Shown: positions 21,700 through 41,118, counted from the stretch's first letter. The stretch is 64,000 bases of DNA from Candidatus Beckwithbacteria bacterium GW2011_GWC1_49_16 (GCA_001029675.1 CP011210.1:384427-448426); one strand, 5' to 3'. Notes: generated by a model from the sequence alone, not told the origin. Translations and numbers: made by a program.

Positions 21700-21784
21700 T
21701 GGCATTAACTATATTACTCATTAAATATTTATTTATTTTTCAGTGAATTTACATTAGTAAAGTGTCAAAATGTTTATATAACTT

Positions 21785-23863: not shown

Positions 23864-24326
23864 TAAAGGAGAAATGGTAGTCCCCTTCCTGGCTTTTGGT
23901 TTGTGAGGTTAGCTTAAAACGGGAATAGTCGGGGAAGAAAGTGTCGCAGCCAAAGTCGCCTTCGATTTTGGTGACGTAGAGGCGGTCGGCCTGATCTATC
24001 GTCTGGCGGTAGAGCTCTCCCCCGCCGATGACAAACAATTCCCGATCGTCGTGGCTTTGGGCTAGATTAATAGCCTCGTCTAGCGAATGGGTTATCAGGC
24101 AGCCCGGGGCGGAATAGTTTGAGTCGCGGGTGACAACAATATTGGTTCTTCCGGGCAAGGGCTGGCCGATGGTTTGGTGGGTTTTGCGGCCCATGATGAT
24201 GGGGTAACCGTAGGTGATTTTTTTGAAGTGTTTTAAGTCGGCGCTGATATGCCAGGGAATAAGGCCGTTTTTGGCGATACCAAGCTTGTCATCGTGGGCG
24301 ACAATGAGGGAAAGTTCGGCGGACAT
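23817..24326 (-). CDS. folA: dihydrofolate reductase (trimmed to the Met at 24326; the longer ORF is a 5' readthrough into thyA)
   Basis: LSLIVAHDDKLGIAKNGLIPW...IMGRKT...VIGGGELY. Confidence 0.8.
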   Translation of the reverse strand: MSAELSLIVAHDDKLGIAKNGLIPWHISADLKHFKKITYGYPIIMGRKTHQTIGQPLPGRTNIVVTRDSNYSAPGCLITHSLDEAINLAQSHDDRELFVIGGGELYRQTIDQADRLYVTKIEGDFGCDTFFPDYSRFKLTSQTKSQEGDYHFSFITLENPSFDSAPGST

Positions 24327-24327
24327 G

Positions 24328-25278: not shown

Positions 25279-25338
25279 AGTCAACATTTTAGGGGAAGTG
25301 GCGGGCGGCCGCAAGAGTTTGGTAGAATATAAGGGTAA

Positions 25339-25423
25339 GCCGTGGTGGCGGAACCGGTAGACGCTCGAGACTTAAAATCTCGTGGGAGTATATCCCGTGT
25401 GGGTTCGAGTCCCACCCTCGGCA
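25339..25423 (+). tRNA. tRNA-Leu (anticodon TAA), class II (one T:T mismatch in the acceptor stem)
   Basis: Resembles canonical tRNA-Leu. Anticodon loop CTTAAAA, T-loop GGTTCGAGTCC. Confidence 0.75.
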
Positions 25424-25440
25424 CCCCTCCGCTAAAGCTA

Positions 25441-25513
25441 CGGGGTGTAGCGCAGTTGGCAGCGCGCCTCGTTTGGGACGAGGAGGTCCTCGGTTCGAAT
25501 CCGAGCACCCCGA
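25441..25513 (+). tRNA. tRNA-Pro (anticodon TGG)
   Basis: Acceptor CGGGGTG/CACCCCG, anticodon loop TTTGGGA. Confidence 0.9.
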
Positions 25514-25549
25514 CCGCGTAAAGCTCGCGATGCTCGCCACGCGGCAAGC
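25514..25549 (+). ncRNA. conserved post-tRNA hairpin motif, copy 1 (CCGCGTAAAG...CACGCGGCAAGC)
   Basis: Starts at the encoded CC that follows the tRNA-Pro discriminator base. The same architecture follows tRNA-Arg(TCT) and tRNA-Arg(TCG). Confidence 0.4.
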
Positions 25550-25593
25550 CGTAAGCTTGCGACGTGATTTGAGCTAAGCGAAAATTTTACGTT

Positions 25594-25664
25594 GCGGGAT
25601 TAGTTGATCGGCTCAACGTCACCCTTCCAAGGTGAAGAAAGGGGTTCGACTCCCCTATCCCGCT
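25594..25664 (+). tRNA. tRNA-Gly (anticodon TCC)
   Basis: Acceptor GCGGGAT/ATCCCGC, anticodon loop CTTCCAA, T-loop GGTTCGACTCC. Confidence 0.85.
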
Positions 25665-27181
25665 CAATAACGCTCGATGATTCTTTTGACTGCCAAGTAG
25701 TAGAAGGCGTCTGCCAGTGAGTTAACCGTACCTTTTTTGATCAGTTGGCGCATTTGTTTATAGGTGGTTCTTATTGACCACTCGATCATCGTCTGGGAGT
25801 CTTTTTGGTTGACGCTGGTGCGGGCGACGTTGGCGGCCCACTCGATTAAAGAGCCGGCGACGCCGCCGGAATTGGCAAACGAACCGGTCAAATGGTCGAT
25901 ACCCATTTTGGGCAAGATTTCTTCGGCCAAAGGAGTGACCGGGCCGTTGGCGCCGTCGACGATAAGAAGATTCCGGGGCAAAAATTTGACGTTGTGGCGA
26001 TTTACCACCCGCTCTTGGGAAGAAACGAACAAAACATTCATGCCCGACTGGCTCCACAATTTTTCCTTGCCGGCTAAGACCTTGACTTTACCCTTTTGAG
26101 TTTTGGCCCAGTCTGATAGCGAGCCTCTTTTGGCTTTGGTTTGGCCGATTTGGGCCAAATCCTTAACGGTTAAGCCGTCTGGTTTTAAGATGACCGAGCG
26201 GCTATCGGTGAGGCCTAAAACCTGGATGCCTTGACTAACTAGCAGGCTGGCGGCAGGCAGGGCGGCATTGCCGGCGCCGTCGAAGACTACTTTTAGTTCG
26301 GACGGTTTGATTTTTTTGTCTTCCATCCAGGCTTTTAAAGCTACGGCGGTGCCGAAGCCGGTAGCCGCTGCGCGAGCTTTATTGCCTAAGTATTTTCTGT
26401 CAGGGGTTTTGCCGGTGATGACGCCGACGACCAGGTTCCGGGGCATTTTCAATTTCAGATCTTTAACCGCTCTAGCGTAGCCGTCGACAAAGCCGTCCAT
26501 GACAGAATGACCGGCGACCTTGCCGGTGGTGGCGATGTCTCCGGCGGGGACGTCGCGGTCCCAGCCGACGACGCCTTTTAGGCCCAGTTGATAACCAAAC
26601 TCTGCCAAAACCTTCCAGACAAACTGATTGTGATCGGGTAAGTAACTTGATCTGGGGCCGATAAGCACGCCTTTGGAGCCGCCGCGGACGGCCAAGCCTT
26701 TGGCGCGGGGATGTTTTTTGGTAAAGCCGGAGTGTTTTAGAACCTTAGAAAAGTTGACGCCGGAGTTTTTGACCAGCATTTCCAGGCCCAGGGCAAAGAC
26801 GTCGTCGAGCGCCAGTTGGCGGGCGGCGTCGATGTCTTTGATGGTTTTGACTTTGTCGCCCAGCCCCTCGACGCCAAGGTAACGGATGCCGCCTTTGACG
26901 ATTTGGCCGGGCTTAAATGGTTTGGCGTCGTCAAACCAGGAGCGCAAACCCATGATCATGTAAGTGACACCTTTGAAAGTAACCGGAAAACTAAGTTCGG
27001 CGGTGAAGGAGGGGTAGAGAATGCGGGAAGTGACGGCCTGGTTAAGTTTAATCTTTTTGTCGTCCCGGGCGATTTGGGTGAGGGCTTTTAAAACCCTAAA
27101 TTGGGCTCCGGCCAAAAAAGACTGCTCGGCTTGTTTTTTCAAATCGGTCAGCGTTTTTGCCAACATTTTTTTATTATACAC
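25664..27181 (-). CDS. Glu/Leu/Phe/Val dehydrogenase family protein (glutamate dehydrogenase-like) with an N-terminal extension
   Basis: Motif KGGIRY, NAD-binding loop VVFDGAGNAA, C-terminal IVDGANGPVT. Confidence 0.6.
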   Translation of the reverse strand: MYNKKMLAKTLTDLKKQAEQSFLAGAQFRVLKALTQIARDDKKIKLNQAVTSRILYPSFTAELSFPVTFKGVTYMIMGLRSWFDDAKPFKPGQIVKGGIRYLGVEGLGDKVKTIKDIDAARQLALDDVFALGLEMLVKNSGVNFSKVLKHSGFTKKHPRAKGLAVRGGSKGVLIGPRSSYLPDHNQFVWKVLAEFGYQLGLKGVVGWDRDVPAGDIATTGKVAGHSVMDGFVDGYARAVKDLKLKMPRNLVVGVITGKTPDRKYLGNKARAAATGFGTAVALKAWMEDKKIKPSELKVVFDGAGNAALPAASLLVSQGIQVLGLTDSRSVILKPDGLTVKDLAQIGQTKAKRGSLSDWAKTQKGKVKVLAGKEKLWSQSGMNVLFVSSQERVVNRHNVKFLPRNLLIVDGANGPVTPLAEEILPKMGIDHLTGSFANSGGVAGSLIEWAANVARTSVNQKDSQTMIEWSIRTTYKQMRQLIKKGTVNSLADAFYYLAVKRIIERY

Positions 27182-27249
27182 TCTTTTTAAAAGTAAGCCA
27201 TGGGGTTGCCTTTGGTGTGATATACTTTGATAGGCTTGAGGAAATTTGA

Positions 27250-27322
27250 GCGCCTGTAGCTCAGGGGATAGAGCAACTGTCTTCTAAACAGTAGGCCACA
27301 GGTTCGAATCCTGTCAGGCGCA
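27250..27322 (+). tRNA. tRNA-Arg (anticodon TCT)
   Basis: Acceptor GCGCCTG/CAGGCGC, anticodon loop CTTCTAA. Confidence 0.9.
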
Positions 27323-27390
27323 CCGCGTAAAGTCCCGCTTAGCGGGACCACGCGGCAAGCACGCGTAAAAATAGTACACGCCGCAAGCAC
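27323..27390 (+). ncRNA. conserved post-tRNA hairpin motif, copy 2, plus a degenerate second half-copy (27361-27390)
   Basis: CCGCGTAAAG-TCCCGCTTAGCGGGA-CCACGCGGCAAGC, followed by ACGCGTAAAA...CACGCCGCAAGC. Confidence 0.4.
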
Positions 27391-27391
27391 T

Positions 27392-27658
27392 ATGTATTTT
27401 GTTTACCTGCTGCAAAGCTTAAAATTCTCCAGATTATATATTGGTTTCACTCCAGACGACGTTAATAGACGTTTAGCCAAACACAATTCAGGATTAGTTC
27501 TTTCCACTAAAACATATAAACCATGGAAACTTATTTATTTTGAAGCTTATTTGAATCGAAAAGACGCTTTGGGCAGAGAAAGATATTTGAAGAGCGGTTC
27601 AGGGAGGAAGTTTTTGAATAAACAACTTAGAAATTATTTTACAGATAAGGTAAAATAG
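27392..27658 (+). CDS. GIY-YIG nuclease family protein (small, stand-alone)
   Basis: VYLLQS...LYIGFT...RLAKHN. About 90 aa is typical of this family. Confidence 0.7.
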   Translation: MYFVYLLQSLKFSRLYIGFTPDDVNRRLAKHNSGLVLSTKTYKPWKLIYFEAYLNRKDALGRERYLKSGSGRKFLNKQLRNYFTDKVK

Positions 27659-27710
27659 CCTTGTTCACTAACTTTGGTTTACCAAGTGGTGAGCGAAGCG
27701 AACTTTACTT

Positions 27711-27783
27711 GGTGACCGTAGCTCAATGGTAGAGCGCCTGCCTGTGGAGCAGGAGGTCGCGGGTTCGACTCCCGTCGGTCACC
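27711..27783 (+). tRNA. tRNA-His (anticodon GTG) with the extra 5' G-1
   Basis: Acceptor G-GTGACCG/CGGTCAC-C, anticodon loop CTGTGGA. Confidence 0.85.
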
Positions 27784-27861
27784 CATCGTTTTTTCTCAAG
27801 AGATTTTCTAATCCATTAGGTCGGCTCGAACCTGTTGCTCAAGGAATGGTAGAATTGCTTT

Positions 27862-28272
27862 ATGAAGATTTATTTTGCTGGATCGATTCGTGGCGGTGAG
27901 GGAAATAAAGCTTTGTTTAAGCAAATTATTGATCAATTAAGAAAATATGGAGAAGTTGTTGGTGGCGAACATGCTGATGAAGTAATTCTTTCTAACTTAA
28001 AAGGGGGTCTAGGGGATGAGCATATATATAATCGTGATAGTAAGCGCCTTGATGGAGCAGACGTTTTAGTAGCAGAAGTTACCACTCCTAGCTTAGGTGT
28101 TGGTTATGAAATTGGCATTGCAACGCAACAAAACAAGAAAATTTTGACTCTATTTAAAGAGGATAAAGATAAAAAACTTTCAGCCATGATCAGCGGCTCG
28201 CCAAAATTAACTAACAAAACCTACAATACTTTTGAAGATATTAAAAAAATTCTTGAAGATTTCCTCTCATAA
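27862..28272 (+). CDS. 2'-deoxynucleoside 5'-phosphate N-hydrolase-like protein (DNPH1/Rcl, nucleoside 2-deoxyribosyltransferase family)
   Basis: MKIYFAGSIRGG...ADVLVAEVTTPSLGVGYEIG, matching the Rcl family signature. Confidence 0.6.
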   Translation: MKIYFAGSIRGGEGNKALFKQIIDQLRKYGEVVGGEHADEVILSNLKGGLGDEHIYNRDSKRLDGADVLVAEVTTPSLGVGYEIGIATQQNKKILTLFKEDKDKKLSAMISGSPKLTNKTYNTFEDIKKILEDFLS

Positions 28273-28619
28273 ACTTTCGGAATAGGTTCCAATGTCCCTT
28301 CAGACCTGCCTGCCAGCAAATGCTAGAGCATTAGCTCTTGCAGGTTGGATAGCTTTTGCAGGCGGGTCACCCAGCGGTTTTTTATTCAACTTCTAGTATT
28401 TTGTAGGTGATGGTACCGTTGGGAGTATTGATTTTGAAGTGATGTGAGAGTCAAAGCCGGCCTGCCCATTTTTTTTGACTGAAGGTATTTTTCTTTGGTA
28501 AGCTGGGTTGGTTTTAGCGGAGTAAATTTGGCCAGAGTTGACGAGTTTACTGGGAAATTTTACTTAAGAAAATTGTAAAGGTTATTGTAAAGTTAATGGT
28601 AAAGGTCAGAAGTGGGAAT

Positions 28620-29768
28620 CTACGGGACCAAGGAGATGGCGACGCCTTTTTTGTCGGCCCGGGCGGTGCGGCCGATGCGGTGGATATAATCATCTTCTGT
28701 TTCGGGCAAGTCAAAATTAATCACGTGGGTAACGCCCTCAATATCTAAACCCCTTTGGGCGACGTCGGTGGCCAAAAGCACCTTGACGCCACCGGTTTTA
28801 AATTGGGCTAAAGCCCGTTGGCGCTGATTTTGGCTTTTATTGCCGTGGATGGCGGTGGCTTTAAGGCCTTTTTGGATTAAGGCTTGCGCCAGTTTTTCCA
28901 TGCCCCACTTAGTGCGGCCAAAGACCAGCACCCGGTCAAAACCCGGTTTGGTTAACAGCTCGCAAAGCACGTCGATTTTGTTTCTGCCGCTAACTTTGAC
29001 AACTTCTTGGTCAACGTTGTCGGCGATATCCCCTCTTTTAACCGAAATGATCACCGGGTTTCTTAAAAAGCCGGCCATGAGCTGCCTGACTTTGCCTTCG
29101 ACGGTGGCGGAAAAAAACAGAGACTGTCTCACTTTGGGCAAAAGCGAAATTAGCTGCTTGACGTCGTTTATAAAGCCCATGTCCAGCATCCGGTCCACCT
29201 CGTCAAGGACGATGGTGGTAAAACCGGTTAAATCTAAAATCCGTCTTTTTACCAAATCTTTTAACCGGCCGGGAGTGCCGATGACAAAAGGCGGTTTTTG
29301 ACGCAAGCGGCTGATTTGGCGGTTTATCCCGGCGCCGCCGATACAAAGCGCCGAATAAAGGTTAAGGCTGGCGGCAAGTTCAATAAATTCCGCCTCGATT
29401 TGTGCCGCCAGTTCCCTGGTGGGGGTGATGACCAAGACTTTCTCGCGGCGATTTTTGGCGGCTTTGTCGATTAGAGGAATTAAAAAAGCTGCGGTTTTGC
29501 CCGTGCCGGTGTTGGCAACACCGACCACGTCTTTACCGGAAGAAACCAGTGGGATCACTTGGTCCTGGATCGGCGTGGGGATTAAATACCCTTTGGCCTT
29601 AGCGTTTGCTTTAACCTGATTTGAAACCGGAAAGTCGGCGAAATCATTTTTAATGGCCACGACGTCCAGCTTTGATTGGCTCTTGGTTTTTTGAATGAAC
29701 CAGGACGGATTAAATGATCGGGGTTGCCTTCTTACCCGGAAGGAGCGGTGGTGGGGACGACGGAACAT
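28620..29768 (-). CDS. DEAD-box ATP-dependent RNA helicase
   Basis: Q-motif PTPIQ, Walker A ANTGTGKT, DEVD, SAT, HRIGRTAR. Confidence 0.9.
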   Translation of the reverse strand: MFRRPHHRSFRVRRQPRSFNPSWFIQKTKSQSKLDVVAIKNDFADFPVSNQVKANAKAKGYLIPTPIQDQVIPLVSSGKDVVGVANTGTGKTAAFLIPLIDKAAKNRREKVLVITPTRELAAQIEAEFIELAASLNLYSALCIGGAGINRQISRLRQKPPFVIGTPGRLKDLVKRRILDLTGFTTIVLDEVDRMLDMGFINDVKQLISLLPKVRQSLFFSATVEGKVRQLMAGFLRNPVIISVKRGDIADNVDQEVVKVSGRNKIDVLCELLTKPGFDRVLVFGRTKWGMEKLAQALIQKGLKATAIHGNKSQNQRQRALAQFKTGGVKVLLATDVAQRGLDIEGVTHVINFDLPETEDDYIHRIGRTARADKKGVAISLVP

Positions 29769-29772
29769 AGGA

Positions 29773-30270
29773 TTAGGAGTTGGTTTTTAGGCTGGCTTTT
29801 AGACCCGACAGAAGCTGTAATTTGGCTCGTTCCGGTGAAGTGCGGTTAACGGCGGCGATTTCCTCCGCGGTCTGAAGCAGGACCCGCTGGAAAATGTTTG
29901 ACTTGCCTGTCGCCAGGGTATCTGACCTTTCTTGCTTTTCCAGCCAGAGGGTTTTTAACACCCAGAGAGCGTCGGTGAGCCGGTTACGGTTTAAGGCTGT
30001 ATCGGAGTCGAAAGCGGGGCAGCGGTCTTTGGCGATGGATTTTTTGATGATTAAATTAAGCAAATCTTTGAGTTTGGTTTTAGAGACCAGGCGGCGGACG
30101 TGGCCCTGGCTAACGCTTTTTTGTTTTAGGGTAAAAGTGAGGCCGTGGCTGGATTGGGAATTGAAAAATGGGCGGAGGCTGACAGCGTCTTTTTTAATTT
30201 GAAAGACTTTTAAGACTTTGCCATAGCGGACAACTAAGTCGCCGACTGTTAAATTTAATTTACTTATCAT
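29773..30270 (-). CDS. CarD/CdnL-family transcriptional regulator-like protein
   Basis: N-terminus LTVGDLVVRYGKVLKV resembles the CarD_CdnL_TRCF RNA-polymerase-interacting domain. About 160 aa. Confidence 0.5.
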   Translation of the reverse strand: MISKLNLTVGDLVVRYGKVLKVFQIKKDAVSLRPFFNSQSSHGLTFTLKQKSVSQGHVRRLVSKTKLKDLLNLIIKKSIAKDRCPAFDSDTALNRNRLTDALWVLKTLWLEKQERSDTLATGKSNIFQRVLLQTAEEIAAVNRTSPERAKLQLLSGLKASLKTNS

Positions 30271-30324
30271 ACCCTATCCTTTGACCGTCCTCATTGAGAA
30301 GAAGATAGTTAATTATAGCACAAC

Positions 30325-31197
30325 TTAAGGCTTGCGGGTGGTTTTGCCGGGCCAGTGACCGCCAGTGGCAAAATAAACTACATTGCAGTAGAGTTTTCTT
30401 AACGAGTGGTAGACAATGCCGTCTTGATGAATAATTCTTCTGTTTGAGGTGATGACGCTGGCGTCGACTCTTTTATCTTGGCCATTGTTGAGGATACGTT
30501 TCATTAAGTCGATATCTTCTCCGGTGTGAAGAGTGGTGTTATAGCCGTTTTCTTTTAGGGCAACTGACTTGATAAATCCGGAGTTGCCACCACCGATACC
30601 AATTTTTAATTCTTCGGGTTTGGTTTTTTGCACCTGGAAGGCGGCCCGTTTGTAGATTTCATATAGAAACCATTTAACTAAGTCATCTTTAAAGTCGCAT
30701 TCATATGAAATTGGGCCGTGGGTGAAAACAGTCTGGTTGGCGGTATCGGCGAGTTCTTTAAGGTGGGGGGAAAGCCAGTTTTCAGAAACGACAGTATCGG
30801 CGTCTGTGGTGAGGATGAACCGGGTTGACGGTTCCACAGCGTATAGACCGGCTTGGCGGGCCCAGGCGACGCCTTTTTTTGGTTGTGAAACTACTTTGGT
30901 TCCGAATGCATGGGCGATCTCCGGAGTAGCATCGGCGGAAGCGTTGTCGACGACAATAACTGATAATGAAGTTTGAGAGAAAGTAAGAGCTTGGTTGATA
31001 GCGGCTAAAGCCCGAGGTAAAAGGATCGACTCGTTGTGCGCCGGAATGATGATGGCCGCCTCTGGGTTGGGGGCGTGGTTGACGGTTTTGATGTTTTGGC
31101 TGTTTTGATTATAAAAATCTACCTTGGCTTCGGAATCGGGAGCAGGGTTTTTTTGGTGAAGTTGTTGATAATTTTGCCACAAAGCTTTTTCTCTCAT
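30325..31197 (-). CDS. family 2 glycosyltransferase
   Basis: IIIPAHNE...VIVVDNASAD...TTDADT, the GT-A DXD pattern. Confidence 0.7.
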   Translation of the reverse strand: MREKALWQNYQQLHQKNPAPDSEAKVDFYNQNSQNIKTVNHAPNPEAAIIIPAHNESILLPRALAAINQALTFSQTSLSVIVVDNASADATPEIAHAFGTKVVSQPKKGVAWARQAGLYAVEPSTRFILTTDADTVVSENWLSPHLKELADTANQTVFTHGPISYECDFKDDLVKWFLYEIYKRAAFQVQKTKPEELKIGIGGGNSGFIKSVALKENGYNTTLHTGEDIDLMKRILNNGQDKRVDASVITSNRRIIHQDGIVYHSLRKLYCNVVYFATGGHWPGKTTRKP

Positions 31198-31241
31198 AAG
31201 ACTATATTATAAGATATGAAGGCAAGTTTGGGGTTACTAGG

Positions 31242-31607
31242 TTAAGCCACAACTTTTTCGACTTCGTCGGGGATTTGGGGTTTGGCGTCTTCGGTCCAGG
31301 TGAGCCATAATAAAAGGCTGTCTCTTAGTTCTCTTAGGCGATTAATTTCTTTGAGCATTTTTTCGGCGGCGGGCAAGGATTTTTCCTGGGCAGCGAGCTC
31401 ATAAAAAACTTTAACCAGTTGGTCGAGGCGGTTGGACAAGGCCTGATAAACCGCTAAAATCCGGCCCTGGCGGGATCTTTTTCGGTAAGTTGCGTGTTGG
31501 GAAAGAGTGGTCCACTCGCCGGCGGCGATTTCTTGGTTTAAGTCCGATTGATCTTGAGGCGACTCCTGGCTGGTTTGGCTTTCCTGGGTTGACTCCGGCT
31601 GGTCCAT
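31242..31607 (-). CDS. hypothetical protein (acidic N-terminus)
   Basis: 121 aa ORF. Confidence 0.4.
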   Translation of the reverse strand: MDQPESTQESQTSQESPQDQSDLNQEIAAGEWTTLSQHATYRKRSRQGRILAVYQALSNRLDQLVKVFYELAAQEKSLPAAEKMLKEINRLRELRDSLLLWLTWTEDAKPQIPDEVEKVVA

Positions 31608-31652
31608 TAATTGATCCTACAAGTATTTCAGTATTTGGAGTTAGCTTAACGG

Positions 31653-32402
31653 TTATACATTAGTTGGTACTAGAGTCCTGGCGTCAAAAACATAGCCTTC
31701 AATTACTAGGCCGGCGCCTGGTTTGTCTTTTAAATTAACTTGTCTGCAAATGGCCCAACCGAAAGTGCAGTCAGTTTCTTTACCCCCGATATAGGCGACT
31801 TCTTTTTCTAGATTTACTTTGTCATCCAGCCAATTGTCGTATCTAGTTAAGACGGGAATTCCAATAACTTTTTCTCCAGGCTTAATATAACGGTCGTTGC
31901 CGAAGTTGTCTAAGGTGTGTCTAGATTTTGTGTTGGGAGCCTCCCAGGCTCCAACGCCTGAAAGTCCTTCAAGGGGGGTTATCTCGAAAGCCCGAGGATA
32001 AAGAATTTCACCAAATTGTCTGTTAAGCTTAGTGTTTTCATCGGTGTTAAGGCGAGTCGGTCGGTCGAGAAGCAAATCGACAACCGCTGGCGCTCGATTT
32101 TTGTTACTGCGAGCATAAAGACGCCAAAGGCGTCTTTTATGCTCAGGGACATTATCTGGGACAAGATCGTTATATTGAATTATGAATTGACCATTTTCTA
32201 ACATTAAAGTAGTACCGTCTTCCAGCGGGAGAATGTGGGTTTCTTTTTCTGTTTCACCGGTTTTATCTTTTGAAGCGAGGGCGTGAATAGCGGCCTTTCC
32301 CAATACGGCAGCTCCTCCTATGGCTGCGACCAACTTCAGGACGTTGAGAAAATCTTTTCTGTCTACGGTTGTATTTTCAGGAGAAACAACGCCAGTTCCC
32401 AT
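31653..32402 (-). CDS. hypothetical exported protein (signal/Tat-like N-terminus)
   Basis: DRKDFLNVLKLVAAIGGAAVLG, then a soluble domain. Confidence 0.45.
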   Translation of the reverse strand: MGTGVVSPENTTVDRKDFLNVLKLVAAIGGAAVLGKAAIHALASKDKTGETEKETHILPLEDGTTLMLENGQFIIQYNDLVPDNVPEHKRRLWRLYARSNKNRAPAVVDLLLDRPTRLNTDENTKLNRQFGEILYPRAFEITPLEGLSGVGAWEAPNTKSRHTLDNFGNDRYIKPGEKVIGIPVLTRYDNWLDDKVNLEKEVAYIGGKETDCTFGWAICRQVNLKDKPGAGLVIEGYVFDARTLVPTNV

Positions 32403-32457
32403 AGACTAATTATGCCATTGTTATAGGTAAAAAATCAAATTTGCTATACTGCGTAAG

Positions 32458-33567
32458 ATGAAACAGTATTTTAAATACCAGGGAGGTAAGCTACCCTTGC
32501 CGGTGTTTTTTCCGGACGCGACCCGGGCGGTGGTGCGGACGGTGGACAGCCAGGATATCAAAGCGACCGGTACTCCCGGAGTTTTGGTCAACACCTATCA
32601 CCTTTACCTAGATCTGGGCAGAAAAATTTTGGAGCGCTTCGGGGGCATCAGGGAATTTATGGGTTGGAAGGGGGCGGTGATTTCTGACTCGGGCGGGTTT
32701 CAGGTAATGAGTTTAGCCAAACGGGCCGGCAAGCGGGGCGGGGTGACCGACAAGGGAGTCAAGTTTAAGTTGTCGGGAAAAAAGACGCTGGAATTGACGC
32801 CGGAGACTTCGATCGAGTTTCAGATGGCCTTAAAGCCTGACATGGCGGTTGTTTTGGATGATTTTACCTTGCCTAATTCTACTCGCAGTCAGGCGGAAGA
32901 GTCGGTGGAAAGAACTATCCTTTGGGCCGAAAGAAGCAAAAAGAAATTTGAGGAAATTTGCGACCAGCAAGGGCTGACCGAGGGTAAAAGGCCTTACCTT
33001 TTAGCTGTAGTCCAAGGGGGTGAAAATTTGAAGTTGAGGCGCCTCTGCGCCGAACGCTTAGCGGAAATTGGTTTTGACGGTTACGGCTACGGCGGCTGGC
33101 CGATTTTGGACAACGGCGAGTTTAACTATGACGTCGCCCGCACCATTGCCCGATTTACTCCCAAGGAGAGTTTTCTTTACGGTTTGGGAATTGGTAAGCC
33201 GGAAGAGGTTGTCAATCTGGTGGACATGGGCTTTCAGATTTTTGATTGTGTCTTGCCCACCCGCGACGCCAGGCACAAGAGGCTTTATGTTTTTGATTCC
33301 GCTTCAATTAATCAAATTGACGTTAGAGCAGATAATTTTTATGAATTCTTTTCGCCGCAAAAGCAGATTCATTACGTTGACGACTCCCCTATCAGTTTGG
33401 CTTGTGATTGTCTTTTGTGTAAAAACTACTCCCGGGCATATCTTAACCATCTTTTTCGCATCGAGGAGCTGACGGCGTTGCGGCTGGCCACAATTCACAA
33501 CTTGAGGTTTTACTCGATACTGATGGAGAAATTGCGACCTACAGGATCTGATCCCGTAGGTGTTTGA
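32458..33567 (+). CDS. tgt: queuine tRNA-ribosyltransferase
   Basis: NTYHL, FMGW.G.ISDSGGFQV, LGIGKPEE, and the zinc site CDCLLC...H. Confidence 0.85.
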   Translation: MKQYFKYQGGKLPLPVFFPDATRAVVRTVDSQDIKATGTPGVLVNTYHLYLDLGRKILERFGGIREFMGWKGAVISDSGGFQVMSLAKRAGKRGGVTDKGVKFKLSGKKTLELTPETSIEFQMALKPDMAVVLDDFTLPNSTRSQAEESVERTILWAERSKKKFEEICDQQGLTEGKRPYLLAVVQGGENLKLRRLCAERLAEIGFDGYGYGGWPILDNGEFNYDVARTIARFTPKESFLYGLGIGKPEEVVNLVDMGFQIFDCVLPTRDARHKRLYVFDSASINQIDVRADNFYEFFSPQKQIHYVDDSPISLACDCLLCKNYSRAYLNHLFRIEELTALRLATIHNLRFYSILMEKLRPTGSDPVGV

Positions 33568-34849
33568 GGCGGAGGTGGTGGTGGAGGCGGCGGGCGAAGC
33601 GGTGGGACTCGTTTCTTAAGTGCTGGATTAATTTTAAGGCTTGGTTGGCGCGGCCTATTTCGGCTTGGTGGAAGGTGGCATGATCTCGTGAGGGAATGAG
33701 TAAGCGGTCGGGGTGTTTGACGATGGCGATGACCGGGGTCGACCAAGGGACAACTTTGAGGGCGGATTTGAGTTGGGTTTTGCCGCCGTCGATGACGATT
33801 AAGTCAGGGGCGGGCCAGTCAGAATGTTTGGCACGGCGCGAGAGGATTTCTTTTAACATTTGCGGATCGTTGGGGGTAGCCAGAGTTTTAATTTTGAAGT
33901 GGCGGTAGAGGTTCGGTTGGGGCAGACCCTTGACAAACACCACCATGGAGCCGGTGGCGTCTTTTCCCGAGATATTGCTGATGTCGTAGGCCTCGATGCG
34001 GTTTAACGGGTAGGTGGAGGGTAGGTTTTGGTAGCGGCGCAAGATACGGCGAAGCTCAAGAAGTTTTTCTTTGGTGGTGTCTTCGATTAATCGCGGCAGT
34101 TCGAGCTCGGGGCGGGCGGGGAGACGACGGAGGTTTTCGAGAAGTTCAATCTGGTCGCGAACCTTGGCGGCGGCTTCGAATTTTTCTGAAGCGGAAAGAA
34201 GCCGCATGCGTTTTTTGAGCCGGGTGATAACTCTTGCCTTTTTCCCCCGTAAAAAAAGTTTTAAGTTAACCAGGTTTTTTTGGTAGTCGTTTGGGGAGAT
34301 CTTACCGCAGCAGGCGCCGGGACAAAGACCTAAGTGAAAGTAAAAGCAAGCATGCTTATTTTTGGCGGGAGGTTGGGCTTGGTTGCAGAAGGGAAAGATG
34401 CGGCGGACAAACCTTAATACTTGTCCGGCCTTGTAGCCAGAAGGATAAGGACCATAACAATTTCTAATTTCTAATTTCGAATTTCTAATTTGGTTTTTGC
34501 GGGCGGTCAAGACCGCCGGATAGACGTCTTTGGTGATGACAATATATAAGGGAGATTTGTCGTCTTTTAAAAGGACGTTGAAGCGGGGCTGGTGGAGTTT
34601 TACCAGTTCGGCCTCAACAAGCAAGGCTTCAAACTCGGAGTCGGCGGCTTGCCACTTAACCGTTTGGGCGGCGGCGAGCATTTGCCGGGTTTTGGCGTCA
34701 GCGGCAGTCAGGTGCCGGTAGCTAGATAATCTAGCTTTCAAGTTTTTGGCCTTGCCGACGTAGAGGACTTGGCCCGAGCGGTCGGTAAACCAATAGACGC
34801 CGGGGGCTTTGGGAGTGGCTTTGAGGGAAGCGGTTATTTTTGAGTTCAT
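33539..34849 (-). CDS. uvrC: excinuclease ABC subunit C (short form, without a C-terminal HhH domain)
   Basis: GIY-YIG GVYWFTDRSGQVLYVGKAKNLKARL, Cys-rich region, and the C-terminal endonuclease motif RIEAYDISN. Confidence 0.8.
   Translation of the reverse strand: MNSKITASLKATPKAPGVYWFTDRSGQVLYVGKAKNLKARLSSYRHLTAADAKTRQMLAAAQTVKWQAADSEFEALLVEAELVKLHQPRFNVLLKDDKSPLYIVITKDVYPAVLTARKNQIRNSKLEIRNCYGPYPSGYKAGQVLRFVRRIFPFCNQAQPPAKNKHACFYFHLGLCPGACCGKISPNDYQKNLVNLKLFLRGKKARVITRLKKRMRLLSASEKFEAAAKVRDQIELLENLRRLPARPELELPRLIEDTTKEKLLELRRILRRYQNLPSTYPLNRIEAYDISNISGKDATGSMVVFVKGLPQPNLYRHFKIKTLATPNDPQMLKEILSRRAKHSDWPAPDLIVIDGGKTQLKSALKVVPWSTPVIAIVKHPDRLLIPSRDHATFHQAEIGRANQALKLIQHLRNESHRFARRLHHHLRLKHLRDQIL
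34459..34491. repeat. heptanucleotide tandem repeat (AATTTCT)x4.7 inside the uvrC coding sequence
   Basis: aatttct aatttct aatttcg aatttct aattt. Encodes EIRNSKLEIRN in frame. Confidence 0.8.
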
Positions 34850-37770
34850 AGAATCTTTTTTAAAAAGTGGCCGGTGTAGGAGGTGGTGATTTTGGCTAGC
34901 TGTTGCGGGGTGCCGGTGGCGACCACCTGGCCGCCCGCCTCTCCCCCTTCGGGGCCAAGGTCAATCACCCAGTCGGCGTTTTTAACCACATCCAGATTAT
35001 GCTCGATGACCACCACGGTGTTGTTTTGATTAACCAGTTGTTTTAAAACAAAAAGCAGTTTCTTTAAATCTTCAAAGTGGAGGCCGGTGGTAGGCTCATC
35101 CAGAAGATAAAGCGTATGCCCCTGGCTTTTGACGGACAGTTCTTTGGCCAGTTTGACCCTTTGGGCTTCGCCGCCGGAAAGCGTCGGAGCCGGTTGCCCC
35201 AACTCGATGTAGCCCAGGCCGACGTCTTTGAGAGTTTTTAATTTGAGATGTAAAGCCTGGTGACTGGGGAAAAATTCCAAGGCTTCGTCGACGGTCAAGT
35301 GAAGAATTTGAGAGATGTCTTGGTCGTGGTATTTTACCGCCAGCGTCTGCTGGTTGTAGCGGGCGCCGTGGCAGACTTCGCAGGTGATGTAGACGTCGGG
35401 CATGAACTGCATTTCGATTTTGACTTGGCCTTCGCCCTGGCAGGACTCGCAGCGGCCGCCCTTGACGTTAAAAGAAAACCGTCCCGGTTTGAAACCGGCC
35501 ACTTTGGCGTCGCGAGTCAGGCTAAAAAGGGTTCTGATATGATCAAAGGCTTTGGTGTAGGTAGCGGGATTGCTTCTGGGGGTGCGGCCGATAGGACTTT
35601 GATCAATTAAAGACACTCGGGTAAGGTGTTCGAGGCCGGAAAGATGGTGGTAGTTTTGCGGAGTGGGGCTGTGAGGTGATTTGAGGTTGTCTTTAACTGC
35701 CGGGTAGAGAGTGTCGTGGATTAAGCTCGACTTACCCGAACCGGAGACGCCGGTAATGACGATAAACTGGCTCAGAGGGAAATCGATTTTAATATTTTTA
35801 AGGTTGTTTTGGGTACAGCCGGCAAGGGTGAGCATTTTCTGGTTTTTTTCCAGGGGAAGCGAAGCGGGCAGAGACAGGGAAACTTTCTTTTTGCCGTTTA
35901 AGTATTTTCCGGTTAAAGACTTGGGGTTGGCGGCGACTTGTTTAGGAGTGCCGGCGGCGACCACTTCTCCGCCATGTTTACCGGCAAGCGGTCCAAAGTC
36001 GATCAGATAGTCGGCCGACTCAATGATCTCCCGGTCGTGTTCGACGACGATAACGCTGTTATCGAGGTCGCGCAGATTTTTGAGGGTAGTGATTAACCGC
36101 CGGTTATCTCGCTGGTGGAGGCCGATCGAGGGTTCGTCGAGGATGTATAAAACGCCGGTTAAACCGGTGCCGATTTGCGAGGCGAGCCTAATCCTTTGAG
36201 CCTCGCCGCCGGCAAGAGTGCCGGCTGCGCGCGACAAGGTGAGGTAGTCGAGGCCAACCGAGAGGAGGAATTTTAACCTGGTAGCTAGCTCTTTTAAAAT
36301 GAGCTGACCGATTTGGCGTTCTTTGTCCGACAAAGGGCTGCCTTTTTGGGTAAGATTGGCAATAAAGCTAAAGGTGTCTTTAATGGATAGTTTGGTCAAA
36401 TCGGCGATGTTTAAGTTGTCGATGCTGACCGATAAGGACTCGGGTTTGAGTCTGTCGCCATTACAGTCGGGGCAAGTTTCGAGACTCATAAACTTTTGCA
36501 TTTCGTTTCTGATAAAGTCGGACTGGGTTTCTTGGAAACGGCGCTCTAAGGCGGGGATGGCGCCTTCAAAGTCGGTATGGATAGTGGTGATTCTGCCAAA
36601 ACGGTTGGTGCCGGTGACCTCAAAAATCTCTTTGGTGCCATAAAGCAAGATGTGTTGGAGATCATCAGACAGGTTGTCCCAACGGGTTTGCGTATTCGCC
36701 CGGTGGGCGTGGACCACCTCTTTGACGGTGCGGGCTAACCAGGAATCGGCAGATAATTGTTTGGCAAAGGGAATGATCGCTCCTTCGGCAAGAGTGAGAC
36801 TTGGGGCGATGATTTTGTCGGGGTCGATTTTTTGTAAATGGCCTAAACCGCTACAGGTAGGGCAGGCACCGTGGGGTGAGTTGAAGGAGAAGATTCTCGG
36901 TTCGATTTCGGGTAGACTTAAGTTACAGTGGTGGCAGGCAAAGTGTTCGGAAAAAAGATGGTCGGTCAGCTTCTGGGGGTGGTCGGGAAAGTTTAACGAA
37001 GCGTCTTTAATCTCAACGGCCAAAGCCAACCCGTCGGACAATTTAAGGGCAGCTTCTAAGCTTTCCGAGAGGCGTTTTTTAAGTTTGTCCACCTCGCTAG
37101 CGTCTTTAGCTTGTTTTTTGGTGAAGCTTAAGCGCTCGACTACAGCGTCGATGGTGTGGCGGTTGGTTTTGATTAAAGCCGGCGGGCTGTCCAAGTCAAA
37201 AAACTTACCATCAATTCTCACTCTGACAAAACCCTTTTTGGCGAGATTATTGAAAAGCTGGCTAAATTCGCCTTTTTTGTCGCGGACCACTGGAGACAGG
37301 ATGATAAATCGAGAGGGTTTGGTGGCGGTGAGGCTAGTTAGAATCAAGTCTTTGACCAGGCCGGCGATTTGGTCGAGCGACTGCTTGGCAATCTCTCGGC
37401 CGCAGTTGGCGCAGTGGGGGTGGCCGATACGGGCGTAAAGTAGTCTTAAGTAATCATAGACTTCGGTGATGGTACCGACGGTTGATCGGGGGTTACTTGA
37501 GGTGGTTTTCTGATCGATGGCAATAGCCGGTGATAAGCCGTCGATCTGGTCGACGTCGGGCTTGGTCATCAGCCCTAAAAACTGCCGGGCATATGACGAT
37601 AATGATTCGACGTAGCGGCGTTGACCTTCGGCGTAGATGGTGTCAAAGGCCAAAGATGATTTACCCGACCCGGACAGCCCGGAGAAGACCACGAGCTTTC
37701 CTTTGGGAATTTTAACCGCGATGTTTTTGAGGTTGTGTTGGCGAGCGCCTTGGATAGCGATGTGGTTCAT
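34846..37770 (-). CDS. uvrA: excinuclease ABC subunit A
   Basis: Two ABC modules ([10 protein letters not shown] and [10 protein letters not shown]) and zinc fingers. 974 aa. Confidence 0.95.
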
Positions 37771-39836
37771 GTTAGTTTCTTGATGGCGTCTCTTAAAATG
37801 GCAGCTTGTTCAAAGTCCAAGACCGCTGCCGCCTGGTTCATCTGCCGGGTTAAACCGCGGAGATATCTTTTTTTGTCTTCTGGGGTTAAGCTGTCGGGAT
37901 TTAAAGTTTTTAAGTTGAGGATCTCTTTACTCCCGATTTGAATTATTGTCGGGGTGATGGTCAGCGGTTGAGGCCGGTCGATGAGTTTTTTTCTCACCGG
38001 TTTGGTGACCGACCGGGGGGTAATCCGGTGGCGGCGGTTGTAGTCAAGCTGAATTTTCCGGCGGCGGCCGACTTCTTTGAGGGCGGCGCGCATCGAATCG
38101 GTTTTGGCATCGGCGTACATGACCACTTCGCCGGCAACGTGGCGGGCGGCCCGGCCCATGGTTTGAATCAGAGACGTTTTGCTTCTTAAGAAACCTTCTT
38201 TGTCGGCGTCCAAAATGGCCACCAAGCTGACTTCGGGTAAATCGAGGCCCTCGCGGAGGAGGTTGATGCCGACGACGACGTCGTACTCGCCGGAGCGGAG
38301 TGAGTCCAGAATGTCGGAGCGGTCCAGCGTGGCGACGTCGGCGTGAAGGTATTGGACTCGGAGTCTTTCACTCCCGGAGTGTGCCGCAGGCGCAACACCA
38401 CTCCGGGAGTGTTCGTTTAAGTACTCGGTTAAGGCTTCGGCCATTTTTTTGGTGAGAGTGGTAACTAAGACTCTTTGGCCCAGTTTTTTTCTTTGGTTGA
38501 CTCTTTGAGTCAAGTCTTTGACCTGGCCAGCGGTGGGAAGAATGGTAACTATCGGGTCGGTGAGTCCTGTAGGGCGGATTAACTGCTCAACGGTTTCCCC
38601 GCTAACCGAAATTTCCCAGTCTGAAGGAGTAGCCGAGGTATAGATGGTTTGCGGTACTCGGTTTAAAAACTCGGGGAAGCGTAAGGGGCGGTTGTCCAGA
38701 GCCGAAGGGAGCCTGAAGCCGTAGTCGATGAGAGTCTTTTTCCGGGCTTGGTCGCCTCGGAACATGCCGCGGATTTGGGGAATGGTCATGTGGGACTCGT
38801 CGATGACGGTCAAAAACCGGCGGCCGAATTTTTGGGAGTTTAAGTGAAAGTAGTCGATCAGGGTATAGGGAGGTTGGCCGGGGTCGCGGCCGTCGAAGTA
38901 TCTGGAGTAGTTCTCGATGCCGTTGACGTAGCCGACCTCGTTAATCATCTCCAAGTCGTGTTCGACTTTTTGTTTTAGGCGGTAGGCTTCGACGATTTTA
39001 CCGGCGACTTTAAATTGTTCCAGGCGGGTTTTCAGATCCAATTTAATTAATTGAATCGCTGCTTTTTGGGTGATTGGATTGGTAAGGTAGTGTTTAGCCG
39101 GATAAATGACGTCGCGGGGAGCACCCTGGTTGGGCCGGGGCAAGGGCGCGGCGGTAACCGGATTAATCCGGGCAAGGGTTTCTATCTGGTTATCAAGCAT
39201 GACCAGGCGCACCAAGTAGTCGGCGTAGCTAGGCCAGATGGTGATTTGCTCCCCCCTAACTTGGAAGTTGCCTCGTGAAGGCGCCAGGTCATTTCTTTGG
39301 TATTGCAGGTCGGTGAGTCTGTCAATGATGGTGTCGCGGTCGACCAGCTGCCCTTGGATTAGCTCCAGGGTGTAGCGGCCGTATTCTACGGGCGAGCCCA
39401 GGTTGTAGATGGCCGAGACAGAGGCGACGACGATGACGTCGGGGCGGGTGAGTAAATTGGTGGTGGCCGACAGCCGGAGTTTGTCGATCTCCTCGTTGAT
39501 GTCGGTTTCTTTTTCGATGTAGGTGTCGGTGGCGGGTAAGTACGCTTCGGGCTGGTAGTAGTCGTAGTAGGAGACAAAGTAAGACACTGCCGCATCGGGG
39601 AAAAAATCTCTAAACTCCTGATAGAGTTGGGCGGCGAGAGTCTTGTTGTGGGAAATGACCAGCGTGGGCGCTTGGGTTTTGGCAACAACGTTGGCGATGG
39701 TGAAGGTTTTGCCGCTGCCGGTGACCCCGAGCAAAGTTTGCTGGGGTTGGCCTTTTTTGAGACCGGCCACCAGCTTGTCTATTGCCTGGGGCTGGTCGCC
39801 GGTCGGTTTAAAGTCGGCTTTGAGTCTAAATGGCAT
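37767..39836 (-). CDS. uvrB: excinuclease ABC subunit B
   Basis: Helicase motifs [12 protein letters not shown], and a C-terminal UVR domain. 4-nt overlap with uvrA. Confidence 0.95.
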
Positions 39837-39893
39837 AAACCTTTAATTATACCCCACTCCCCCTTCGTGTTGGTAGTCTATAATGAAGGGACG

Positions 39894-40508
39894 ATGAAGC
39901 AGGCGATAATATTTTTAAACGGCGATTTGGCTGATGCATCTGGAGTGAAGCAGGAGATAAAAAAAACTGATTTGGTGATTGCGGCCGACGGCGGCAGCAA
40001 GCTGGCCCAAAAGCTTGGCATCACGCCCGACCTTGTTGTCGGCGACTTGGATTCTTATACAGGCAGCAAAAAAATTAAAACGATCCCCTACCCTAAAGAC
40101 AAGGATTTTACCGACTCGGAGTTGGCCATAGACTATGCTTTAAAACAAAAAGTCAAAAGGTTGGTAATCGTCGGCCTTTTGGGCCGCAGATTCGATCATC
40201 TGGCATCAAACTTGATGTTGGCCGCGACCTTGGCCGCCAAAGGTATAAAGGTCGAGGCGGTCGAAGGCAAGCAAAGGCTCTACTTTTTATCTTCAAGGAT
40301 AAACCTTGAAGGCAATCCCGGAGATATAGTTTCGCTTACTCCCCTTAAAAGCAATGTAAAAGTGACTACTAGAGGATTAAAATGGAAACTTCAAGGATCA
40401 ACCTTGAAGTTTGGCTATGGCCGGGGGGTGAGCAATGTGATGACCGCGAAAAAGGTTTCTCTTTCCGTCCGCCGCGGTATCCTCCTGGTGGTTCATTCCA
40501 GGCAGTGA
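39894..40508 (+). CDS. thiamine pyrophosphokinase (start at MKQAIIFLNG)
   Basis: IIFLNGDL...AADGG...GDLDS pattern of the TPK catalytic domain. Confidence 0.7.
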   Translation: MKQAIIFLNGDLADASGVKQEIKKTDLVIAADGGSKLAQKLGITPDLVVGDLDSYTGSKKIKTIPYPKDKDFTDSELAIDYALKQKVKRLVIVGLLGRRFDHLASNLMLAATLAAKGIKVEAVEGKQRLYFLSSRINLEGNPGDIVSLTPLKSNVKVTTRGLKWKLQGSTLKFGYGRGVSNVMTAKKVSLSVRRGILLVVHSRQ

Positions 40509-40540
40509 TTTGTTATAATTATTCTCAAGCGCCTGTAGCT

Positions 40541-40561
40541 CATAGGACTTGAAATTTATTT
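40541..40561 (+). other. tRNA 5'-end-like fragment (GCGCCTGTAGCTCATAGGACT)
   Basis: 17 of 20 nt identical to the 5' acceptor/D-arm of tRNA-Arg(TCT) at 27250. No matching 3' half. Confidence 0.35.
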
Positions 40562-40583
40562 TGATTTCGAATACGCTGATTGA

Positions 40584-41000
40584 GTGAAAGTTTGTTCCAA
40601 GTGTAAACTGGAGAAGCCAGAAGAAGAATTTAATTATAAGTATAAAGATAGAGGTATTAGACAATATCATTGTCGCTCTTGCAGTAAGAAACTGATAAGA
40701 CGCCATTATGTGGCAAACAGGTCGTATTACTTACAAAAAGCTAGGAAACGTAACGATTGGTTGAGGCAAATAACGAAAGAGTACGTCAGGAATTACTTGT
40801 CGAGTCATCCTTGTGTTGATTGCGGAGAATCTGATCCAGTTGTTCTCGAGTTCGACCATTTATCAGATAAGATAGCTCCTGTTTCCAGCTTAAGACGTAA
40901 TGGTACCCTTGAAAAGGTTAAGCTTGAAATAGCTAAATGCGAGGTGAGATGCGCTAACTGTCATAGACGTAAAACTGCAGAGCGGGCAAGCCTGATATAA
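40584..41000 (+). CDS. HNH endonuclease (zinc-ribbon plus HNH, stand-alone)
   Basis: CSKC...HCRSC at the N-terminus. C-terminus LEFDHL...CANCHRRKT. Confidence 0.7.
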   Translation: MKVCSKCKLEKPEEEFNYKYKDRGIRQYHCRSCSKKLIRRHYVANRSYYLQKARKRNDWLRQITKEYVRNYLSSHPCVDCGESDPVVLEFDHLSDKIAPVSSLRRNGTLEKVKLEIAKCEVRCANCHRRKTAERASLI

Positions 41001-41018
41001 TATGCTGAAGATATTGAT

Positions 41019-41093
41019 GCCCCTGTAGTTTAATGGATAAAACGCGTCGCTTCGGACGATGTGATGGGGGTTCGATTCCCTCCAGGGGCACCA
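41019..41093 (+). tRNA. tRNA-Arg (anticodon TCG), CCA encoded
   Basis: Acceptor GCCCCTG/CAGGGGC, anticodon loop CTTCGGA. Confidence 0.85.
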
Positions 41094-41118
41094 CGTAAAG
41101 CTTCGCTACGTGGCAAGC
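41091..41118 (+). ncRNA. conserved post-tRNA hairpin motif, copy 3 (CCACGTAAAG...ACGTGGCAAGC)
   Basis: Same architecture as copies 1 and 2, with an A:T pair replacing G:C in the stem. Confidence 0.4.

Follow-up and report, generated by a model that had tools for sequence, protein, structure and literature searches.

The 64,000-nt stretch of the genome of Candidatus Beckwithbacteria bacterium GW2011_GWC1_49_16 that was analyzed here (CP011210.1:384427-448426; hereafter, the window, to which all positions refer unless another locus is named) carries a short hairpin motif directly 3' of three tRNA genes, which an earlier note made from the sequence alone had brought forward as a conserved RNA structure. 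Our analysis suggests that the motif is probably the cognate DNA hairpin repeat of a cassette built around a small GIY-YIG nuclease gene, similar to the cassettes of the Ssn family. Ssn proteins have a single GIY-YIG domain, and SsnA from Neisseria meningitidis (CDD cd10448) consists of 94 aa (Chenal et al. 2025, Nat Commun, PMC11893778).

ARAGORN and Rfam found 15 tRNA genes in the window, most of them without an encoded CCA; three have the motif at their 3' ends and the other 12 do not. The three sites named in the earlier note were located at 25513-25549 (copy A, after tRNA-Pro(TGG)), 27322-27360 (copy B1, after tRNA-Arg(TCT)) and 41090-41118 (copy C, after tRNA-Arg(TCG)), all on the + strand. 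The hairpins are about 28-39 nt long and begin at the CC(A) end of the tRNA, reading ACC-GCGTAAAG-...-CCACGCGG-CAAGC after both tRNA-Pro and tRNA-Arg(TCT), and ACC-ACGTAAAG-CTTCGCT-ACGTGG-CAAGC after tRNA-Arg(TCG). A covariance model, which was built from the copies of other genomes and run unfiltered across the whole window, gave scores of 45.9 bits (E 1.2e-11), 47.8 bits (E 3.3e-12) and 41.0 bits, respectively, that is, 41-48 bits with E values from 1e-10 to 1e-12. The same model recovered three degenerate copies. Copy B2 (27361-27388, +; 14.7 bits, E 0.027) follows B1 in tandem and corresponds to the half-copy that had already been pointed out, while two inverted copies, A' (25555-25595, -; 15.1 bits, E 0.02) and B' (27677-27713, -; 17.4 bits, E 0.004), were absent from the earlier note. 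The ACC-side end of A', which also matches the loose pattern described below, abuts the 5' end of tRNA-Gly(TCC), and A and A' form an inverted pair occupying the entire spacer between tRNA-Pro and tRNA-Gly; B' abuts the 5' end of tRNA-His with a 2-nt overlap. The loose pattern CGTAAA-N(4-30)-GCAAGC matched six times in the window against 0.40 expected, a number reached in none of 100 shuffles, and each of the six matches adjoins a tRNA gene or another copy. Gene-less copies are thus present above chance in the window, the strong solo ones being those that start at 25513 and 41090.

We also folded the copies as single-stranded DNA (ssDNA). Copy B1, with its 7-bp inner hairpin, adopts the canonical structure at -14.2 kcal/mol (z -4.45), and copy C folds into the canonical hairpin with z -3.17. 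Copy A has the outer stem CCGCGT/ACGCGG and the tail CAAGC, and its inner part folds poorly (z -0.5); none of the degenerate copies folds convincingly, the fold of A' being not significant and that of B' having z -1.45. The stable folding of B1 and C is consistent with recognition of the hairpin in ssDNA, although it is no test of it.

The change from CCGCG/CGCGG in copies A and B1 to CCACG/CGTGG in copy C, for which the earlier note had argued a covariation, is present in the window, and the compensatory change is real and general. We scanned one genome per bacterial or archaeal species with the pattern CCNCGTAAAG-N(4-24)-ACGNGGCAAGC; as an internal control, the pattern put no constraint on either base of the covarying stem position. 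At least 119 loci with 124 matches were obtained (the figures quoted from the scan hold among the matches listed), where a back-of-envelope chance expectation for the whole species collection is about 90 matches. The free position was Watson-Crick paired in 101 of the 124 matches (C:G 61, G:C 20, A:T 19, T:A 1), against a chance rate of about 25%, and the remaining 23 comprised three G:T pairs and 20 mismatches. The RNAfold predictions converged on one recurring fold. Its outer stem, CCNCGU/ACGNGG, has 6 bp and is followed by an AAA bulge on the 5' side; the inner stem opens with G-C and measures 2-8 bp, one C or A is bulged on the 3' side, and the tail is CAAGC. In an alignment of 40 canonical copies, which were picked by hand from matches to a search pattern that leaves the inner helix unconstrained, 96% of the inner helix cells were paired, compared with 35-50% when the partner was slid, and both sides changed in four of five pairs. 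Wobble pairs are rare (6/182, 3%). The pairing is therefore kept across genomes. The head of the motif can be written as (A)CCNCGTAAA, and a near-identical minimal form of 28 nt turns up again in distant phyla.

The hosts among the listed matches include many classes of Patescibacteria, WOR-3, Omnitrophota, Verrucomicrobiota, Gemmatimonadota, Planctomycetota and some Gammaproteobacteria, and several of these genomes have multiple copies. By a crude open reading frame (ORF) call, 61 of 101 copies are intergenic, their orientation to neighboring genes is just mildly biased, and about two-thirds of the intergenic copies follow a gene on the same strand. Hardly any copy in this sample lay at a tRNA, and a position at a tRNA 3' end was assigned to one of the 124 listed copies. 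Rfam searches at both gathering and permissive thresholds gave no relevant family at the motif and returned just tRNA, tmRNA, rRNA and group I intron; the matches to RAGATH-36 (20.9 bits) and Twister-sister (15.9 bits) were far under the family cut-offs and were set aside. A literature search with the motif sequence string returned primer coincidences only. The motif also resembles a 16S rRNA segment, GCAAGCG...GGGCGTAAAG, in permuted order, which we take to be a coincidence.

Between tRNA-Arg(TCT) and tRNA-His, the earlier note had not mentioned a gene that proved central to the interpretation. The segment 27322-27713 holds a single ORF, at 27392-27658 on the + strand, which encodes a stand-alone GIY-YIG nuclease of 88 aa (Pfam PF01541, E 1.2e-14, residues 1-72). 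The full unit, consisting of the hairpin B1, the degenerate tandem copy B2, the nuclease gene and the inverted hairpin B', fits exactly between the two tRNA genes, and the ACC-side ends of both terminal hairpins face a tRNA. Since a strong copy on the + strand and a weak inverted copy on the - strand bound it, this segment is delimited by inverted repeats.

Loci selected by the motif rarely hold a GIY-YIG gene, so the reciprocal test was made on loci selected by the protein. The first 600 candidate stretches contained 544 relatives, and we kept the best 80, all metagenomic and 215 kb in total, selected by similarity to the GIY-YIG protein alone, without using the motif. The covariance model built for the motif found 118 matches at E<=1 in these loci, and an independent descriptor (a 5-nt arm, TAAA, 3-45 nt, A and the complementary arm) found 220 hairpins against 58 in the reversed-sequence control. 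Their placement was specific: within 150 nt upstream of the ORF, 75 hairpins had the strand of the gene and 14 the opposite one, and within 150 nt downstream, 50 were inverted and 16 direct. An upstream copy and an inverted downstream copy were both present in 31 of the 56 loci with enough flanking sequence. The arrangement was also seen in another phylum, in locus L055 from Verrucomicrobiae, where copies at 3992-4019 (+) and 4426-4451 (-) bracket an ORF at 4042-4287. In the tmRNA-linked loci, the same kind of ORF lies about 100 nt downstream of the motif. Among the cassette-flanking hairpins, the arm was CCGCG in 73 and CCACG in 12 of 125, CG preceded TAAA in 118, the bulged base was C in 98, and the consensus reads (C/G/T)C(G/A)CG-TAAA-R-[hairpin]-C-ACG(C/T)GG. 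The CAAGC tail was found in just three of the 125, and the tail therefore marks a subfamily.

These results show that the motif is statistically tied to the GIY-YIG nuclease gene and not to tRNAs as such. From the geometry of the reciprocal test, the hairpin is the terminal inverted repeat of a nuclease-gene cassette, and the copies at 25513-25595 and 41090-41118 can accordingly be regarded as gene-less derivatives of it. Because most copies have no nuclease gene beside them, the connection of the solo copies with the nuclease is one of sequence family and not of adjacency.

The 88-aa protein has no domain besides GIY-YIG and shares 100% identity with a protein of Candidatus Beckwithbacteria. 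Among solved structures, the best profile match was BH0048 (E 6e-19), followed by SLX1, and by profile and fold together the closest solved proteins were the UPF0213 proteins BH0048 and EF2693, then SLX1; the AlphaFold2 model (pLDDT 93) matched Slx1 with a TM score of 0.63. No match was obtained with NCBIfam and PHROG models, nor by tblastn of the protein against plasmids at 1e-5. From these comparisons, the protein is of the minimal Slx1/UPF0213-like GIY-YIG type and is a candidate ssDNA nuclease of the Ssn family.

Copy C, a solo minimal hairpin, adjoins the discriminator base of tRNA-Arg(TCG) on one side and the stop codon of a convergent dehydrogenase gene on the other. The order SBP, tRNA-Lys, dehydrogenase, tRNA-Arg(TCG), TPK and UvrB is preserved in relatives with 70-74% identity in the dehydrogenase, and in three of them (L204-L206) a near-identical tRNA-Arg(TCG) is kept without the hairpin or an encoded CCA. 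No nucleotide separates the dehydrogenase stop codon from the discriminator base in L205 and L206 (...ttttag|tgcccctgg...), and in L204, 26 unrelated nucleotides occupy the position of copy C. The C-terminus of the dehydrogenase is conserved right to the stop codon. Judged from this comparison, copy C is a clean 28-nt insertion in the window, at 41091-41118 (CCACGTAAAGCTTCGCTACGTGGCAAGC, running CCACGT...GGCAAGC) and with no target duplication; position 41090, which the covariance model match had taken in, is the discriminator A of the tRNA. It follows that the CCA of this tRNA-Arg(TCG) gene belongs to the insertion. For the other two loci, the relatives reached through GDH homologues are not syntenic.

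Some further sequences near copy C were noted. An 11-mer, ATTTTGTTTAC, occurs at 27396 and 41123, at a similar offset after GCAAGC at 27383 and 41113, and coincides with the start of the GIY-YIG ORF at the former site. We considered copy C as the relic of a full cassette on this account and rejected the idea, since the 11-mer at 41123 encodes on the other strand the conserved C-terminus of the dehydrogenase, DWTEVNKM*, and the identity is therefore coincidental. A segment of about 480 nt (40509-40991), from TPK to the promoter of tRNA-Arg(TCG), is present in L204 and absent from L205 and L206, where TPK directly follows the tRNA; an ORF of 138 aa (40584-41000) at this place has no Pfam match, and the segment ends at a motif-like sequence at 40968-40991 (+). 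This last sequence is a doubtful relic, which matches the loose pattern only (covariance model 7.1 bits, E 5), lies upstream of the tRNA-Arg(TCG) promoter and has no fold (z +0.9); its TTTACGTCTATGAC part is also present in L204.

Although the motif is not tied to tRNAs as such, its link with tRNA ends is a real location preference. With a strict descriptor, the window has three junctions at tRNA 3' ends and one at a 5' end against 0.02 expected, and the protein-selected loci have three junctions against 0.16 expected. These loci contain 28 tRNA or tmRNA genes in the 215 kb, and 18 of them, in 13 of the 80 loci, lie within 300 nt of the ORF, an enrichment beside the cassettes. The 5' arm of the hairpin begins at the CCA or immediately behind it in L124 (tmRNA), L140, L157, L158, L169, L190 and L201, and among the motif-selected loci the motif begins at the CCA end of tmRNA in L022, L074 and L106. 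The preference looks like that of an insertion or retention site and not like an RNA function. It might arise because the nuclease prefers targets in DNA that is single-stranded and heavily transcribed, because insertions are tolerated at these sites, or because the donated CC(A) is of benefit.

Several arrangements in other genomes were observed in addition. Spacer-less tandem arrays occur in L053, L075, L092 and L018, and in the Omnitrophota loci L053 (6197-6290, -) and L075 (173-271, -), three or four tandem copies lie just upstream of genes (guaA in L053), with neighboring units overlapping by one C, so that an alternative ACGGGG-CAAG-CCCCGT hairpin can form. In L027 (3235-3521, - strand), a 95-bp inverted hairpin pair has on either side, as a direct repeat of 12-13 bp, the sequence GTCAGAGTAGCT(C), with which the neighboring tRNA gene begins at its 5' end, and a similar duplicated tRNA 5' fragment, GCCGAGGTAGCT, precedes a motif copy in L013 (2852-3074); these repeats could be target duplications or carried-over tRNA fragments. 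Downstream of tRNA-Leu in L047 (2442-2760, - strand), repeats of tRNA-like and hairpin type span about 190 nt and end in a second ...ggcaCCA 3' end, which neither ARAGORN nor Rfam calls a tRNA, and the motif follows at once (CCTCGTAAAG...). In L016 (993-1027, -) and L076 (994-1028, -), from Peregrinibacteria/Peribacteria, the hairpin is found inside a group I intron of 23S rRNA, between the exon end ...GUCGGGU (CCUUGUCGGGU) and GCCCGA. As GCCCGA can pair with the exon end as a possible internal guide, the hairpin is placed in the P1 loop, where the same module can apparently also settle, and the two species differ by compensatory changes in the inner stem. A tetraloop-receptor-like or other RNA tertiary module, which was considered from this site, was dropped after the link with the GIY-YIG gene emerged.

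If the hairpins are the cognate repeats of the nuclease, as we think probable, the following mechanism can be proposed by analogy with Ssn. The nuclease would recognize its hairpin solely in ssDNA, such as arises in replication, heavy transcription or DNA uptake, would read not only the structure but also conserved bases that are unpaired (the bulged AAA, a lone bulged C and the CGT/ACG arm), and would nick a few nucleotides 5' of the hairpin. The hairpins might in this way mark DNA for the nuclease, and the unit of hairpin, gene and hairpin, along with the solo hairpins, may spread and persist as a selfish element resembling an insertion sequence (IS) or the repetitive extragenic palindromic (REP) sequences. 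The binding and cleavage of ssDNA by the 88-aa protein, its biological role and the route by which copies are made are what we infer from the family resemblance.

Several observations weigh against this interpretation. Of the flanking copies in the window, the right-hand B' and also A' are weak, being degenerate and poorly folding, and a GIY-YIG ORF was present in seven of the 119 listed motif-selected 8-kb loci. The search string published for the repeats of the Ssn family, named SRM (HGTCWYN(0-2)YYVSBRHN(0-5)WNVSBRGN(0-2)RNCYNB, built from 29 genomes; PMC11893778), has no match in the window, so that none of the six copies is matched on either strand, and in the 215 kb of protein-selected loci it matched once, as it did in the control. 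The UPF0213 proteins, which are the best solved relatives of the 88-aa protein, may form a sister clade to Ssn. Furthermore, the identical protein was found in one context in 24 of 24 contigs; since it is always in this context, nothing points to recent movement in this species, and recent transposition was rejected.

A more specific version, which we hold to be rather unlikely, would make the unit a site-specific selfish element, in which the ssDNA nuclease inserts the full unit or a 28-nt solo hairpin at the discriminator/CCA end of tRNA or tmRNA genes and donates CC(A) to genes without CCA. If true, this would explain the invariable ACC as the first bases of the hairpin, and the unit would be a tRNA-targeting mobile element with a nuclease of a class not known to drive transposition.

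Three other explanations were weighed. The precise start of the three strong copies at CC(A), the same junction at tmRNA genes and at tRNA or tmRNA genes in several metagenomic loci, and the covarying helix could all be expected if the hairpin were a functional RNA in the 3' trailers of tRNA precursors, serving as a processing signal, terminator or stabilizer with its stem opened by the CC of the CCA; each of these tRNAs and its hairpin almost certainly share a transcript. Yet 12 of the 15 tRNA genes in the window manage without the motif, and the empty site in the syntenic relatives L204-L206 contradicts a conserved trailer function. The orientation is not fixed either: inverted copies stand at the 5' ends of tRNA-Gly, tRNA-His and the tRNA of L027, where a transcript would carry the complement. 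With the single tRNA 3' end among the 124 listed copies, the roughly two-thirds of intergenic copies behind a gene on the same strand, wobble pairs at 3% and no match to an Rfam family, we find a trailer RNA very improbable. An intrinsic terminator in particular was rejected, as no T-run follows the hairpins and a terminator scan called nothing at any copy in the window. Among the candidates that the earlier note had left side by side, a protein-recognition site is thus the closest to the evidence, whereas a trailer processing or termination structure and a co-transcribed small RNA are disfavored.

The solo, tandem and inverted copies, the spacer-less arrays, the L027 pair within its direct repeat of a tRNA 5' end, and the scarcity of nearby GIY-YIG genes in most of the listed motif-selected loci would also suit a repeat of the REP or miniature inverted-repeat transposable element (MITE) type, moved by another enzyme elsewhere, such as a REP-associated tyrosine transposase (RAYT) or an IS200-type HUH transposase, with the GIY-YIG gene close by merely because both share "junk-tolerant" sites such as tRNA flanks. 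Mere co-location would not be expected to produce the direct upstream and inverted downstream placement within 150 nt of GIY-YIG ORFs in loci picked by protein alone; moreover, none of the copies in the window was seen to have a transposase next to it, and the canonical 5' GTAG head of REP is absent. This explanation therefore seems quite unlikely to us. It is also conceivable that the hairpins, which lie 30-150 nt from the start and the stop of the ORF, are mainly cis-regulatory sites of the GIY-YIG gene, acting as an operator or in translational control, and that the dispersed copies are inactive, decayed remnants; transcriptional regulation was likewise weighed by Chenal et al. when they first sought linked genes (PMC11893778). 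Across phyla, solo copies have nevertheless kept both the unpaired positions that are conserved and stems with compensatory changes, unlike decayed remnants, and the near-identical 28-nt minimal form recurs in distant phyla, so that we regard regulation as the main function of the hairpins as highly improbable.

As to the surroundings, Candidatus Beckwithbacteria belongs to the Microgenomates lineage of the candidate phyla radiation (CPR). The window is part of a small bacterial chromosome of this lineage and not of a phage; a megablast search of 24000-29000 against phages gave no match. The tRNA genes have neighbors including UvrABC, TGT, ThyA, glutamate dehydrogenase and a DEAD-box helicase. 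The GC content falls to 0.34-0.38 over 14000-22000, compared with about 0.50 elsewhere, and this stretch may be a horizontally acquired island. The GC skew is strongly positive across the window, its cumulative value climbs monotonically, and the + strand carries all three strong copies. If the repeats were biased toward one replication strand, this would suit a nuclease acting on ssDNA, a point that one window cannot judge. In two other assemblies with the identical cassette (L216, 1-1278; L218, 1-337), the synteny with 25330-25665 of the window ends exactly at the 3' end of tRNA-Gly(TCC), and unrelated sequence replaces the tRNA-Leu/Pro/hairpin/Gly cluster and ThyA, which could be due to a strain rearrangement or a misassembly. 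An apparent loss of tRNA-Arg in L218 proved to be an artefact of a scaffold gap (NN).

With the cassette taken as the probable source of the motif, the motif, once a candidate for a novel structured RNA, is reclassified as a hairpin repeat in DNA whose probable protein partner is encoded at a distance of 30 nt, and the pairing of nuclease and hairpin known from Ssn is extended to CPR/Patescibacteria and several poorly studied phyla. The fusion to the CCA ends of tRNA and tmRNA, with an inverted copy at tRNA 5' ends, is a location preference not reported for the Ssn family, and one clean empty-site comparison reveals a 28-nt insertion that brings the CCA along. Since the SRM string misses the hairpin consensus, surveys with this string probably undercount the system. 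If the nuclease is site-specific for its hairpin, it would offer a further ssDNA-cutting specificity for the proposed Ssn toolbox, as well as a handle on how the ultra-small genomes of CPR tolerate selfish repeats beside essential RNA genes.

The minimal Slx1-like GIY-YIG clade has been treated as vertically inherited putative repair enzymes, without cognate repeats being described (Dunin-Horkawicz et al. 2006, PMC1564403), and the UPF0213 proteins BH0048 (1zg2) and EF2693 (1ywl), which likewise consist of a single minimal GIY-YIG domain, are the best matches in sequence and fold. With the free-standing GIY-YIG homing endonucleases, such as the Seg proteins and I-TevI, the cassette shares a GIY-YIG nuclease in a small, selfish-looking unit, but the homing endonucleases carry DNA-binding domains and cleave double-stranded DNA, and no hairpin repeats flank them; the 88-aa protein scored far below the cut-off of the group I intron endonuclease model. 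A GC-rich hairpin right after a tRNA gene is reminiscent of a tRNA 3' trailer or an intrinsic terminator, although the hairpins in the window have no U-tract, are not kept at orthologous sites, and also occur inverted at tRNA 5' ends and far from tRNAs. A further parallel is with REP sequences and their mosaic arrays (bacterial interspersed mosaic elements, BIMEs) and RAYT, an IS200/IS605-like Y1 HUH enzyme: these too are short imperfect palindromes occurring solo, paired or clustered, which are tied to one small nuclease gene that they flank and are recognized as folded ssDNA. The linked enzyme here is GIY-YIG and not HUH Y1, there is no GTAG head, and the hairpin sequence is conserved across phyla, whereas REP sequences are species-specific.

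The strongest likeness is with Ssn. The ssn genes are flanked by hairpin-forming repeats of 20-50 nt, the Neisseria repeat NTS being CGTCATTCCCGCGMAVGCGGGAATCYRG; SsnA binds its hairpin solely as ssDNA and cuts a few nucleotides upstream, and NTS also exists in hundreds of solo copies, the system modulating natural transformation in Neisseria (PMC11893778). The authors likened the NTS-ssnA-NTS unit to an insertion sequence and to REP/RAYT, and their paper mentions neither tRNA nor Patescibacteria (PMC11893778). The protein of the window is similarly a single-domain GIY-YIG protein of fewer than 150 aa (88 aa), its gene is bracketed by hairpin-forming inverted repeats (27322-27360, +; 27677-27713, -) in the architecture of NTS-ssnA-NTS, many repeat copies are gene-less, and the system is spread across bacterial phyla. 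In both systems, a conserved 5' flank of the CGT type is followed by a GC-rich hairpin with a freely varying loop, and CGTCA-TTCCCGCG...GCGGGAA-TCYRG of NTS parallels CGTAAAG-TCCCGC-TTA-GCGGGA-CCACG of copy B1. In contrast, the hairpin described here is extended by an outer stem of 6 bp and contains an AAA/C internal loop, with a CAAGC tail in one subfamily; it does not have the GTCWY that the SRM string requires; in the window it is fused to the CCA ends of tRNA, as elsewhere to those of tmRNA; and its hosts are CPR/Patescibacteria, WOR-3, Omnitrophota and Verrucomicrobiota, whereas Ssn is found mainly in Pseudomonadota. The authors of the Ssn study expect further pairs of nuclease and hairpin (PMC11893778), and the hairpin type described here, lying outside the published SRM definition, is probably a new addition to the systems of the Ssn kind already described in 2025.

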